Below are positions 763 through 24,861 of a stretch of 64,000 nucleotides of DNA, one piece after another; position 1 is the first letter of the stretch, and every line of letters starts with the position of its first letter. Position numbers and translations under genes: made by a program. The DNA is from an uncultured Candidatus Saccharibacteria bacterium (GTDB taxonomy: Bacteria; Patescibacteriota; Minisyncoccia; Phycocordibacterales; UBA2100): the NCBI GenBank assembly GCA_964437185.1, contig CAYTFU010000005.1, positions 2,528 to 66,527 of the forward strand, given 5' to 3'. The notes under the pieces are model-generated. The model ran no database searches. It worked only from the letters and a program-made list of their open reading frames with translations, and was not told the DNA's origin.

Positions 763-1599
763 TTAGAGGACGATTTGCAAGCCGGTGATTGCGGCGTGAG
801 GCTTGTATTGTAACGTAAATTGCGAAACGATGCCCTCGACAAGTCTGTGATCGCGCTTCTCCGCCTTTTCGAAGGAACCTTTGGGCAATACGATCGAAAT
901 GGGGGCGTGAGCGGTGTCGCGCCGGAGAAGCTCTTCCACCGCCTCATATTGGTTATCGTAGATGTGCGCATTTGAAATCGAATGCGAGTATACACCAGGC
1001 TTCACGCCAAGTTTTTGCGCGAGGATCATTTGCAGAAGAGCGAATCCCGCGACATCCGAAGGAAAACCGAGCACCATGTCGTTGGACCGAACGATGTTGT
1101 GAAAGTGTAGTCGCCCACCAATAATGTTGACGGTAAACGAATACGGGCACGGCACATTTGCGCGCGCCGTCCCGCCCAAGCCATCGCTCCCCGGATCCCA
1201 TGTCACGACGACCGCGTGGCGCGATGTCGGATCTTTCTTCAACAAATCGACGAGGAGCTTGAGCTGATCGCGCCCGAAGTGCTTGCGCCACCGATATCCG
1301 TACGCCACCGTCACCACGTCGGCGGGATTGGTAAAACTGTCCCAGATTTTTGTAAAGTCGCGCAAGAAATCCGCAGGCTTGCGTCCACCTGCTATAAACC
1401 ACACTTGTTCGGCGACAAACATTTTCACCGGAATTTTGCGCAAGGTGAGGAGTGGAAAGCCATCGCGCTCGATATCGTGTGAGAAGTGGAGACCTGGCAC
1501 TGCTTGTACCTCGTGCCCTGTCCTCGCATTTTTCTCGCGCTCCCCTCGCCCGACGATTTCCCGAAGTAGCCCCTGATACGTCTCGTCGAAGCGCGCCAT
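763..1599 (-). CDS. thyA: thymidylate synthase (folate-dependent ThyA)
   Basis: ThyA-like blocks (FHNIVRSNDMVLGFPSDVAGFALLQMILAQ); start placed at MARFDETYQ inside the longer 763..1665 ORF. Confidence 0.9.
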   Translation of the reverse strand: MARFDETYQGLLREIVGRGEREKNARTGHEVQAVPGLHFSHDIERDGFPLLTLRKIPVKMFVAEQVWFIAGGRKPADFLRDFTKIWDSFTNPADVVTVAYGYRWRKHFGRDQLKLLVDLLKKDPTSRHAVVVTWDPGSDGLGGTARANVPCPYSFTVNIIGGRLHFHNIVRSNDMVLGFPSDVAGFALLQMILAQKLGVKPGVYSHSISNAHIYDNQYEAVEELLRRDTAHAPISIVLPKGSFEKAEKRDHRLVEGIVSQFTLQYKPHAAITGLQIVL

Positions 1600-1655
1600 G
1601 GAGGTATTGTACGCGCCGTCCGCAGGCCCGCAAACACGTGGTACATTTCGGGCAT

Positions 1656-2144
1656 ATGGTGGCAATAGAGTATCCCTACCTCCCTACTGGCCGAACAATC
1701 GAGTACGTCGGCGAACAACATGCATGTATGCGGGAGGCGCGCGAGTACGCGCGCCTCCACTCCCTCGACCACGCGGTACCGACCGGCTCCATCGTTGTAA
1801 AAGACGAGCTCATTCTCGGTCGCGGCGCGAACGGCAGTTCGTACCACGCCGAGCACGGTTGCGAGCGAGTACGGCGCGGCGTCCCCACCGGCCACGGCTA
1901 TGAACTGTGCGAAGGATGCAGCCCCGTAAACCACTGCGAGCCACGCGCAATCGCCGACGCAATCGCACGCGGCGGAGCAACAGTTGGCGCGGATCTCTAT
2001 CTCTGGGGCCACTGGTGGTGCTGCGAGCCCTGCTGGCGAGCCATCATAGAAGCTGGCATTGATCACGTATACCTACTCGAAGGGAGCGAGAGACTGTTTA
2101 ACAAGGCGAATCCCGCCAATATTATCGGACGGCAGTTTTCATAG
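1656..2144 (+). CDS. dCMP (deoxycytidylate) deaminase, cytidine-deaminase-fold zinc enzyme
   Basis: HAEHGCE and PCEPC zinc-ligand motifs; start placed at MVAIEY within the 1452..2144 ORF; divergent from thyA. Confidence 0.8.
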   Translation: MVAIEYPYLPTGRTIEYVGEQHACMREAREYARLHSLDHAVPTGSIVVKDELILGRGANGSSYHAEHGCERVRRGVPTGHGYELCEGCSPVNHCEPRAIADAIARGGATVGADLYLWGHWWCCEPCWRAIIEAGIDHVYLLEGSERLFNKANPANIIGRQFS

Positions 2145-13180: not shown

Positions 13181-13201
13181 GTATGTGCCGGAGGAGAGAC
13201 T
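13181..13201. repeat. 21-bp direct duplicate of the 3' end of tRNA-Leu(CAA)
   Basis: atgtgccggaggagagactcg also at 13225..13245 (tRNA 3' acceptor/T-arm), copies 44 bp apart. Confidence 0.6.
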
Positions 13202-13227
13202 CGGTCACGAATCCTGTATTTGTTGTG

Positions 13228-13308
13228 TGCCGGAGGAGAGACTCGAACTCTCATGGGTTGCCCCACACGATTTTGAGTCGTGCGCGTATACCATTTCGCC
13301 ACTCCGGC
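13228..13308 (-). tRNA. tRNA-Leu(CAA)
   Basis: manual cloverleaf: acceptor GCCGGAG/CTCCGGC, anticodon loop CTCAAAA, long variable arm, T-loop TTCGAGT; 81 nt, CCA not encoded. Confidence 0.85.
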
Positions 13309-14915: not shown

Positions 14916-14964
14916 TACTTCTTAGACTCCTTGTGCTTCGTGTGCGCTTTGCACCACTAGCAGT
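14916..14964. repeat. 49-bp direct duplicate of the 3' end of rpmG (degenerate, in-frame TAG)
   Basis: near-identical to 15083..15131 (last codons plus stop of rpmG); 3 mismatches. Confidence 0.7.
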
Positions 14965-15081
14965 TCTGGGAAACCCACTCCGCTTGCTGACGGATTCCCA
15001 TACCTTCCTCCACGGGGAACCGGCAGGTTCCCCGACCCCCTCCTTCTGCAAGTGGCTCGCAAAAGGCATTCGTAAACTCTC

Positions 15082-15240
15082 TTACTTCTTAGATTCCTTG
15101 TGCTTCGTGTGCGCTTTGCACCACTTGCAGTACTTTTTTAGTTCCACCTTGCGGGTTACGAGTTTGCGGTTTTTGCGTGACCAGTAGTTGATGCGGGCGC
15201 ACTTGCCACACGCCAATTTGAATAGTTGATCCTGAGACAT
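15082..15240 (-). CDS. rpmG: 50S ribosomal protein L33
   Basis: MSQDQLFKLACGKCARINYWSRKNRK...LKKYCKWCKAHTKHKESKK, zinc-ribbon L33 pattern; start placed inside the 15082..15354 ORF. Confidence 0.8.
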   Translation of the reverse strand: MSQDQLFKLACGKCARINYWSRKNRKLVTRKVELKKYCKWCKAHTKHKESKK

Positions 15241-23707: not shown

Positions 23708-24253
23708 ATGTGCACAGCTTACATCGTGCGTATACCCTTCTGTTACAATCTATTAATGCGAAAGCGAAGCTGGTCTCTGCAACAGCTAAAGAAGGCCGCA
23801 GAACAGTCGCATAGTATTCGTCAGGTTCTTATCAATTTGAAGCTTGTGCCGGCGGGAGGAAACTACGTACAAATAAAGCGAGAGCTAGAGATTCAAGAAA
23901 TCGATACGCTGCATTTTCGGGGAAAAACCTGGAATCGCGGACTCAAAACACCTAGACCACCTCTCATAGCTACTGCTGACATACTAGTGAAAAAAAGCGG
24001 CTACCAGAGTTTTAAATTAAAGAAGCGTCTCTTTGCCGAGGGTTTGAAAAAAGCCCAATGCGAAATCTGCGGTTGGGCGGAACGATCAATCGACGGTCGT
24101 CTTCCCCTTGAACTCGATCACGTAAACGGCGATCGCTACGACAATCGAATCGAAAACTTACGAATACTTTGTCCCAACTGCCATAGCCTTCAACCCACAC
24201 ATCGTGGTAGAAATAAGGGACGTCGGGGTGGCGTAATTGGTAGCCGCATTTGA
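23708..24253 (+). CDS. HNH endonuclease
   Basis: CEICGW...LELDHVNGDRYDNRIENLRILCPNCH HNH/zinc motif; alternative start ATG 23756; lower GC than surroundings; 3' end overlaps tRNA-Leu by about 30 nt. Confidence 0.7.
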   Translation: MCTAYIVRIPFCYNLLMRKRSWSLQQLKKAAEQSHSIRQVLINLKLVPAGGNYVQIKRELEIQEIDTLHFRGKTWNRGLKTPRPPLIATADILVKKSGYQSFKLKKRLFAEGLKKAQCEICGWAERSIDGRLPLELDHVNGDRYDNRIENLRILCPNCHSLQPTHRGRNKGRRGGVIGSRI

Positions 24254-24305
24254 CTTAAGATCAAATGCTCGAAAGAGCGTGTGGGTTCGAGTCCCACCCC
24301 CGGCA
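24222..24305 (+). tRNA. tRNA-Leu(TAA)
   Basis: manual cloverleaf: acceptor GTCGGGG/CCCCGGC (one GU), anticodon stem TTTGA/TCAAA, loop CTTAAGA, long variable arm, T-loop TTCGAGT; 84 nt. Confidence 0.85.
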
Positions 24306-24307
24306 CA

Positions 24308-24485
24308 GACTGAGCGGAGCGAGTGCTGTGCTGGGGAGCACAGCGCCTGCGCGCTGTGCGTGTGGGACTCGAAAGGCGCAGGCATGTCGCACGAGTACGT
24401 GCGACGCCGAGCCGGGGTCGCGGAAATTCAATCGTGTCGACGATTGAATTATTCGTGACCGAGTTTACCCCCCACCCCCGGCACA
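24308..24485. repeat. hairpin-rich GC-rich insert ending in a 15-bp duplicate (cccacccccggcaca, 24471..24485) of the tRNA-Leu(TAA) 3' end
   Basis: perfect hairpins gtcgcacg/cgtgcgac and aattcaatcg/cgattgaatt; duplicate of 24293..24307. Confidence 0.6.
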
Positions 24486-24598
24486 TTTTTGTGTTTCAAA
24501 ACTTGAGAATTTGTGTACAATCTCACTACCGCCTATATATTCATATAGACGGGTCAGTCGGAGAACATGAAAGCTCGCTTTCATGTTTCCCCTCCTTA

Positions 24599-24671
24599 CC
24601 GCCTATAGCTCAGCTGGTAGAGCAACTGCCTCTTAAGCAGTGGGTCCCAGGTTCGATCCCTGGTGGGCGGA
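24599..24671 (+). tRNA. tRNA-Lys(CTT)
   Basis: D-arm TAGCTCAGCTGGTAGAGC, anticodon loop CTCTTAA, T-loop TTCGATC, acceptor CCGCCTA/TGGGCGG; the 5' boundary (C1) is uncertain by 1-2 nt. Confidence 0.75.
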
Positions 24672-24702: not shown

Positions 24703-24784
24703 GGGCAGATGGCGAAATTGGTAGACGCACCAGCCTTAGGAGCTGGCCCCGCAAGGGATGGGAGTTCGAGTCTCCCTCTGCCCA
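24703..24784 (+). tRNA. tRNA-Leu(TAG)
   Basis: acceptor GGGCAGA/TCTGCCC, anticodon stem CCAGC/GCTGG, loop CTTAGGA, long variable arm, T-loop TTCGAGT; 82 nt. Confidence 0.85.
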
Positions 24785-24861
24785 CGAGTGAAGCGAGTGG
24801 AGACAAGTCCCTGCGAAGCAGAGGGGCTCTGCCCACAGGCAAAAGCGCGAAGAATTCGAAT

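Follow-up and report, generated by a model that had tools for sequence, protein, structure and literature searches.

The window analysed here, a stretch of 64,000 nucleotides from an uncultured Candidatus Saccharibacteria bacterium, contains seven tRNA genes, and the 3' end of one of them, tRNA-Leu(CAA), is present twice. The two copies form an exact 20-bp direct repeat, TGTGCCGGAGGAGAGACTCG, with 22 bp between them, and the following features are found at the locus:

13184..13203, minus strand: distal copy, downstream of the tRNA (identical in three other assemblies); probably the displaced 3' end of tRNA-Leu(CAA), on the attR side
13204..13225, minus strand: 22-bp spacer, CAACAAATACAGGATTCGTGAC on the minus strand; probable vestige of the right arm of an element (3' arm of hairpin B and terminal YGTGAC)
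13226..13245, minus strand: proximal copy, the functional 3' end of tRNA-Leu(CAA)
13227..13308, minus strand: intact tRNA-Leu(CAA) gene (ARAGORN; Rfam RF00005, 60 bits), the probable target gene, on the attL side

Read on the strand of the tRNA, the proximal copy is CGAGTCTCTCCTCCGGCACA and comprises the last five bases of the T-loop (CGAGT), the 3' strands of the T-stem and of the acceptor stem, the discriminator A and a 2-nt trailer, CA. Two matches to the repeat were obtained in none of 100 dinucleotide-preserving shuffles, even with up to three mismatches allowed. A sequence-only reading of the window had already pointed to a duplicated tRNA 3' end at this site. The duplication is real, but its dimensions need to be corrected: 20 bp rather than 21 bp are shared, as the second copy at 13225-13245 differs at its first base; the first copy had been placed 2 nt off, at 13181-13201, and the claimed 21-mer is exact only at 13183-13203; and the two copies start 42 bp apart, not 44 bp. 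The same reading had suggested that an assembly artefact should be considered. Three assemblies obtained from other samples (L001, ERZ27247817; L003, ERR3094293; L004, ERR3094294) have a base-identical tRNA-Leu(CAA) region, and the repeat is therefore real DNA, which rules out an artefact as its source.

In the approximately 60 kb of the window with gene calls, no recombinase, Rep or other element proteins, or remnants of these, were detected. As there is no recombinase gene within or beside the tRNA-Leu(CAA) locus, we class it as a scar and not as an element. It is regarded as inert and without known activity, the window itself encoding no recombinase. The folding z-score of the scar region is -2.5 and no terminator-like site is predicted there.

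A scan of the window for local direct repeats returned three outliers, namely tRNA-Leu(CAA), tRNA-Leu(TAA) and rpmG, and a further repeat was found behind tRNA-Leu(TAG). The features of these additional sites are:

14916..14967, minus strand: distal copy of the rpmG 3' end, 167 bp downstream, with an internal stop
14968..15082, minus strand: 115-bp spacer of the rpmG scar
15082..15240, minus strand: rpmG (ribosomal protein L33), target of the third scar; proximal copy in the final 52 nt, at 15083-15134
24222..24306, plus strand: tRNA-Leu(TAA), target of the second scar; proximal copy at 24293-24307
24308..24470, plus strand: complete gene-less module of 163 bp, from the motif parse (folding z-score -9.6)
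24460..24487, plus strand: distal, degenerate copy of the tRNA-Leu(TAA) 3' end, CGAGTTTACCCCCCACCCCCGGCACA, containing the exact 15-mer
24786..24836, plus strand: probable fourth scar, behind tRNA-Leu(TAG) (24703-24785), from a 10-mer repeat and a spacer motif

At tRNA-Leu(TAA), the 15 nt of the proximal copy are repeated 178 bp downstream at 24471-24485. Within the module between the copies, the GAGCGGAGCGAG motif is followed by hairpin A and then by the antisense T-loop box at 24375-24386 (GTGGGACTCGAA); hairpin C and the unit GGGGTCGCG-hairpin B-TTCGTGAC come last. The 9 nt preceding the distal copy, ATTCGTGAC, followed by CGAGT, are identical and in register at tRNA-Leu(CAA) and tRNA-Leu(TAA), and by simple arithmetic the chance of a 9-nt in-register identity between the two leucine loci is approximately 4e-6. 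The repeat at rpmG is 52 nt long with 49 of 52 positions identical, and its spacer contains an antisense rpmG end (GCCTTTTGCGAGCCACTTGCAG), GGGGTCG-hairpin-CGTGGAGGAAGG and GAGTTTACGA. The module of an intact element described below, L161, shares with this spacer both GGGGTCG-hairpin-CGTGG(A/T)GGAAG and GAGTTTACGA; because of these common motifs and the antisense rpmG end, we assign the rpmG repeat to the same family, as a scar in a protein gene. An empty rpmG site is seen in L122, where rpmG is followed after 67 bp by tRNA-Trp with no duplication. At tRNA-Leu(TAG), the 3'-end 10-mer CTCTGCCCAC (24776) recurs 51 bp further on at 24827-24836, and the spacer opens with GAGTGAAGCGAG, a 12-mer that is also present just behind tRNA-Leu(TAA) and within the hairpin-B loop of L157. 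This repeat is thus a probable scar that was missing from the sites listed by the sequence-only reading. The recurrences which that reading had named at tRNA-Leu(TAA) and rpmG are borne out by these findings, but two others found no support. The repeat at pth is just a 12-mer and does not correspond to the 3' end of that gene, and the one at tRNA-Lys is an 11-mer from the 5' end of the tRNA rather than the 3' end; neither was counted.

Several other observations were made at these sites. The first 11 nt of tRNA-Lys, TACCGCCTATA (24527-24537 and 24597-24607), have their second copy 70 bp upstream, inside a palindrome (ACCGCCTATAT / ATATAGACGGGT), and the repeat may be due to chance, to a terminator of the preceding module or to a 5'-side analogue of the scars. 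An HNH endonuclease gene (Pfam HNH/HNH_3; 23756-24253, plus strand) overlaps the 5' part of tRNA-Leu(TAA). In L157, another Patescibacteria contig, an HNH gene that is 58% identical (1396-1869, minus strand) has the same position and orientation relative to the tRNA (1304-1386, minus strand), tRNA-Cys and tRNA-Lys lie near the pair in both sequences, and a module whose distal copy is split likewise follows tRNA-Leu(TAA) of L157. A link between the HNH endonuclease and the modules was considered and rejected, since no HNH gene is found near the other modules. The HNH-tRNA-Leu(TAA) pair of L157 is one conserved case. The L33 protein encoded in the window by rpmG is the Cys-rich, CxxC...CxxC zinc-ribbon form, and a Cys-less L33 is encoded at the same locus in the related Kaiserbacteria genome L122 (3247-3402). 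On the strand opposite to rpmG, 14985-15055 (plus strand) weakly matches the Rfam model of an HDV-like ribozyme, drz-agam-1, with 22 bits against a gathering threshold of 37 (E=1), and this match inside the rpmG scar is probably due to chance.

Going by the names borne by homologues of the neighbouring genes, the organism is a Kaiserbacteria/Paceibacteria-like member of the Patescibacteria (CPR). To compare the tRNA-Leu(CAA) loci of relatives, as the sequence-only reading had proposed, loci were gathered by scans of species-representative genomes and of metagenome contigs. In a subset of the Patescibacteria, the same duplication surrounds a spacer of 113-175 bp (L042/L150, L081, L122, L022, L146/L148, L149 and L151). 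L147 and L152 are short contigs that end before the tRNA and carry tandem pairs of modules. Empty sites without a trailing copy are present in other Patescibacteria, among them L111, L020 and L015. Read from the tRNA, a module starts after the proximal copy (R), often with a terminator-like hairpin and sometimes with an antisense acceptor 3' strand, followed by hairpin A. The middle is made up of an antisense T-loop box, G(R)GACTCGAA, joined in some modules by hairpin C, whose GNA/GA internal loop is conserved, and the 3' part of GGGGTCG(C)G, hairpin B, YGTGAC and, without a gap, the distal copy (R'). Behind tRNA-Leu(CAA) the modules end in GGGGTCG(C)G-hairpin-YGTGAC, abutting a full distal copy CGAGTCTCTCCTCCGGCA(CA). 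The YGTGAC terminus is invariant (14/14 modules). So is a G.T (G.U) pair at the base of hairpin B (14/14), and the next two pairs show compensatory AU/GC changes, none of them broken. In the window, the spacer at tRNA-Leu(CAA) ends in GGATTCGTGAC at the distal copy, compared with the conserved GAGGAGTTTCGTGAC in L081, L120, L157 and L161. The sequence-only reading had taken the duplication for the attL/attR scar of a decayed element, and this is supported by the 22-bp spacer ending in a terminus that is shared with the modules and, as described below, with intact elements that carry a recombinase (L164, L159 and L161).

The conserved folds raise the question of whether the distal copy and the spacer are instead a functional part of the tRNA transcript that selection maintains for termination, for processing or as a structured trailer RNA. 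Full modules fold far better than shuffled sequences (z -9.6), in 12 of 12 modules folding is better for the sense than for the antisense strand, and the compensatory changes and the invariant G.U pair in hairpin B would also fit such a role. At tRNA-Leu(CAA), however, all module hairpins are gone, and the weak folding and missing terminator prediction noted above speak against it. In a search with the Rfam 15 families, tRNAs alone reached the threshold and nothing covered the modules at E<=5, which excludes known RNA families such as ribozymes, T-box and tmRNA as an explanation for them. The same architecture is moreover found behind a protein gene, rpmG, and at the ends of recombinase-bearing elements. 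The sequence-only reading had named a terminator conserved in all relatives as the finding that would speak against a scar; many relatives have no trailer copy at all. We thus consider a functional trailer highly improbable.

The elements to which the modules belong could be found through L120, in which the position behind tRNA-Leu(CAA) is taken up by an AT-rich insert of 3 kb whose Phage_CRI (G2P-type) Rep gene is broken. Homologues of this Rep (n=54) and their contexts led to intact relatives of the element with a size of 5-7 kb. These encode a helix-turn-helix protein, a few unknown ORFs (with DUF2726 in some), Rep, a tiny ORF and a large serine recombinase of 519-556 aa. The end of the recombinase gene directly borders the 3' end of the tRNA, and the module and the distal copy are found at the other end of the element. 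We defined large serine recombinases by an N-terminal Resolvase domain, a Recombinase domain and a zinc-ribbon domain in a protein of about 450-700 aa. The proteins of L161 (526 aa) and L159 (519 aa) show PF00239 (Resolvase), PF07508 (Recombinase) and PF13408 (Zn_ribbon_recom), the zinc-ribbon of L161 scoring 23.8 bits against a curated cut-off of 25.3 bits and the Recombinase domain of L159 20.5 against 21.1, and the L161 recombinase also matches the PHROG 95 integrase (E 7e-58). Rep (Pfam PF05144, phrog_702) is the lone recognised protein of inovirus type among the element ORFs; no morphogenesis (pI/Zot) or coat proteins were recognised in the elements examined, and the other ORFs had no matches. 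A scan of viral contigs with the tRNA end, which had been suggested by the sequence-only reading, as well as with the scaffold motif and Rep, gave chance or irrelevant matches only and thus no free or viral form of the element.

The clearest of these elements is the one in L164. At its near end, tRNA-Leu(TAG) reads ...TTCAAGTCCTTTCCCGGGCACA, and at its far end, approximately 5.2 kb further on, an antisense box, GGGGTCGCG, a hairpin and TGTGAC are directly followed by CAAGTCCTTTCCCGGGCACA. The 20-bp repeat formed in this way spans the T-loop C to ...CACA, and these are the boundaries of the tRNA-Leu(CAA) repeat in the window. Other targets are used by related elements: L159 and L163 are inserted at tRNA-Val, L162 and L157 at further targets, and L161 probably at the 3' end of tmRNA, beside smpB.

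These findings bear on two further explanations. The first is a local duplication by replication slippage or repair without any mobile element, which could account for copies that are 100% identical and only 42 bp apart. Such an event is expected to duplicate 42 bp in one piece, but the copies have just 20 bp in common; the spacer ends in an element-specific terminus common to the tRNA-Leu(TAA) locus and other genomes; and the repeat has the boundaries of the direct repeats of an intact element. We regard slippage as extremely improbable. The second is that the scar was left by an unrelated prophage or island with a tyrosine integrase, inserted at this tRNA, and T-loop sites of tRNA genes are classic targets of such enzymes. 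No tyrosine recombinase was seen beside any of the related loci inspected, however, and the spacer terminus GGATTCGTGAC matches the serine-recombinase family, which makes this origin very unlikely. The description of the locus as a classic integrase-mediated scar, made from the sequence alone, therefore holds for the site-specific insertion but not for the tyrosine integrase that it implied, as the intact relatives carry a large serine recombinase.

We propose, with a probability of roughly 0.85, that the 20-bp repeat at tRNA-Leu(CAA) represents the attL and attR junctions of a small mobile element that has since decayed. It is seen throughout the family that a copy of the 3' part of the target lies on each side, that the gene-proximal copy keeps the gene intact and that the arm abuts the distal copy. 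At tRNA-Leu(CAA) just 11-14 nt of element-specific sequence survive, and a 14-mer of the arm with two mismatches allowed reached two matches in 16 of 100 shuffles. Because the motif is this short, the homology of the arm at this locus depends on its exact register beside the repeat and on the relatives.

Based on the intact elements, the scar most likely formed as follows. A small mobile element would integrate site-specifically within tRNA-Leu(CAA), in the 3' part of the gene. The tRNA would stay whole because one end of the element brings its own tRNA 3' end, which starts in mid T-loop and reaches ...A-CA. The original 3' end would be displaced to the far side of the element, directly after a hairpin-rich right arm ending in YGTGAC. 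Recombination between the tRNA gene and the element site (arm...YGTGAC + R + P') would be catalysed by the serine recombinase, with a crossover that may take place inside the repeat R. A crossover at this position is suggested by the rough symmetry of the site, TTYGTGAC...G(C)CACAA, and would account for element-derived tRNA ends in ...A-CA(AA) instead of ...A-CCA. In L146, the proximal end is GGCACACG and the distal end GGCACCA, in agreement with an origin of the distal copy from the host. The distal copy is merely 9-13 nt long in four intact elements, which is less than a simple displacement of the whole 3' end predicts. Internal deletions after the insertion would then have removed the cargo and, at tRNA-Leu(CAA), left the last 22 bp of the arm. 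The remnant would shrink from the inside because deletions reaching the tRNA or the neighbouring host gene are presumably not tolerated.

The gene-less modules are better conserved and better ordered than debris should be, and the inserted unit might therefore not have been a full element. In this alternative, a gene-less, non-autonomous mini-element of 110-175 bp was moved in trans and later deleted internally, which would leave the same scar by a different history. Gene-less modules far outnumber cargo-bearing copies at tRNA-Leu(CAA), their left ends show a recurring motif (GAGCGAAGCGAG directly after the proximal copy) while the right ends are fixed, the tandem units in L147 are identical, and the modules of L122 and L151 are 80% identical compared with 40-51% for the flanking non-coding DNA. 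On the other hand, the left breakpoints differ, L149 beginning at the same terminator hairpin as is found ahead of the module in the intact L164 element and L122 at hairpin A, which looks like deletion of cargo. In L164, a second gene-less module with a decayed copy lies further downstream, distal to the intact element; it is older than the adjoining element, and this is where an older scar would be found. In addition, a circle of approximately 120 bp would be an unlikely substrate for recombination. We consider the mini-element possible but unlikely, and prefer a cargo-bearing element that decayed after its insertion. Tandem arrays, in which an intact element or module is followed by older, more decayed modules, each with a partial tRNA 3' copy, are present in L164 (5380-5560, minus strand), L042 (about 7252), L147 and L152, and show serial use of a regenerated site.

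A further property of the modules is not explained by simple decay of an integrated element. Each well-preserved module holds an antisense copy of the 3' end of its own target, 40-110 nt upstream of the distal copy. This copy varies with the target (tRNA-Leu, tRNA-Val or rpmG) and is usually split by a hairpin: in L159 (about 5100-5060), an exact antisense of the tRNA-Val end is split by hairpin A, and an antisense copy is also present in L149. In the window, it is represented by GTGGGACTCGAA for tRNA-Leu(TAA) and by a 22-nt antisense of rpmG (15020-15041, minus strand). The attP site of a serine recombinase is expected to be quasi-palindromic. In contrast to this expectation, the antisense and sense halves of the target lie 40-110 nt apart in the modules. 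One might speculate that the gene-less modules are mobile units of a non-autonomous kind, or that they function as single strands of DNA or RNA with a defined structure, such as a folded att site or an origin, and that the antisense copy helps to choose or present the integration site; we consider this doubtful. The antisense copy could then act as a folded att site, as in CTXphi and attC, or in a nucleic-acid-assisted targeting of the serine recombinase, and if this were true, it would explain how one scaffold can serve tRNA-Leu, tRNA-Tyr, tRNA-Val, probably tmRNA, and rpmG. The attP(+) site of CTXphi and the attC sites of integrons are folded single-strand attachment sites that are recombined by the tyrosine recombinases XerCD and IntI, respectively. 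The modules resemble them in that, at one end of the element, an inverted target copy is separated from the direct copy by a short, structured stretch, in keeping their structure while the sequence varies, in their strand-asymmetric folding and in the association with a Rep of the type found in single-stranded DNA phages. They differ from them in the serine recombinase, and the likeness is a resemblance only. Hammerhead and other self-cleaving ribozymes and group I/II introns were dismissed as an origin of the modules, as their signature motifs or proteins are absent, and so were the omega-RNA of IS200/IS605, the bridge RNA of IS110 and the homing spacers of CRISPR-transposons, the signatures of which are likewise absent; neither group explains a target duplication of 20-52 bp.

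The gene order around the scar was also compared with that of relatives. Synteny breaks exactly at the distal copy in the window (13152/13184 boundary; compared with L006, L009 and L010-L012), and relatives have a gene for a HAD-type phosphatase followed by type IV pilus/T2SS genes rather than tRNA-Leu. Between the sister Kaiserbacteria L122 and L151, the break in gene order likewise falls exactly at the distal copy, and the flanks downstream of it differ. This suggests that the att scars are points of rearrangement. The neighbouring glycosyltransferase gene could not serve as a synteny anchor, since the relatives have no tRNA there and thus no orthologous locus. Proteins shared in the flanks of modules were considered as element genes and turned out to be host genes such as miaA. 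Among the tRNA-Leu(CAA) genes of the Patescibacteria, both forms encoding CCA and forms ending in CA are found, and the ends supplied by elements read ...A-CA. The elements may be one cause of the loss of the encoded CCA.

Scars at tRNA genes are well known, and the tRNA-Leu(CAA) locus is an ordinary, inert integration scar. It resembles the attL/attR repeats that prophages, genomic islands and ICEs/IMEs produce at tRNA 3' ends, with an intact tRNA at one junction, a 3' copy starting in the T-loop at the other, the element arm beside the distal copy and tandem scars from reuse of the site (L164, L042 and L147). It deviates from this picture in that the recombinase of the family is a serine and not a tyrosine recombinase, and in that the locus has no genes and retains 22 bp of the element. 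Small integrated inovirus-like or plasmid-like elements with a G2P-type Rep, a serine recombinase and att sites in tRNA genes have been reported in large numbers as widespread, including in the CPR (Roux et al., 2019, PMC6813254). The family described here shares with those elements its small size, the Phage_CRI/G2P Rep and the serine recombinase, as well as att repeats in tRNA genes that measure at least 10 bp, but no pI/Zot or coat protein was recognised in the members examined. A second likeness concerns remnants of elements. The CIMEs of Streptococcus and the partial-tRNA arrays beside tycheposon islands are gene-less remnants flanked by att sites, and the loci studied here are similar to them in having att sites around little or no cargo and partial tRNA 3' ends downstream of a live tRNA. 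Unlike them, the remnant is a conserved, hairpin-rich module of 110-175 bp, reduced to 22 bp at tRNA-Leu(CAA). In the literature searched, we found no description of this element family or of its structured arm.

Taken together, three or four scars of one element family are present within 12 kb of a reduced genome, at tRNA-Leu(CAA), tRNA-Leu(TAA), rpmG and probably tRNA-Leu(TAG). An oddity that is concrete and open to testing is the antisense segment of the arm that matches the target, and recombinases with natural, readable attP/attB pairs are useful for the mining of serine integrases. With its Rep and its large serine recombinase, the family inserts across the Patescibacteria at the 3' ends of tRNA genes, of a ribosomal-protein gene and probably of tmRNA. 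Its members re-tail the tRNA genes they enter, with ...A-CA in place of ...A-CCA, and mark breaks in gene order.
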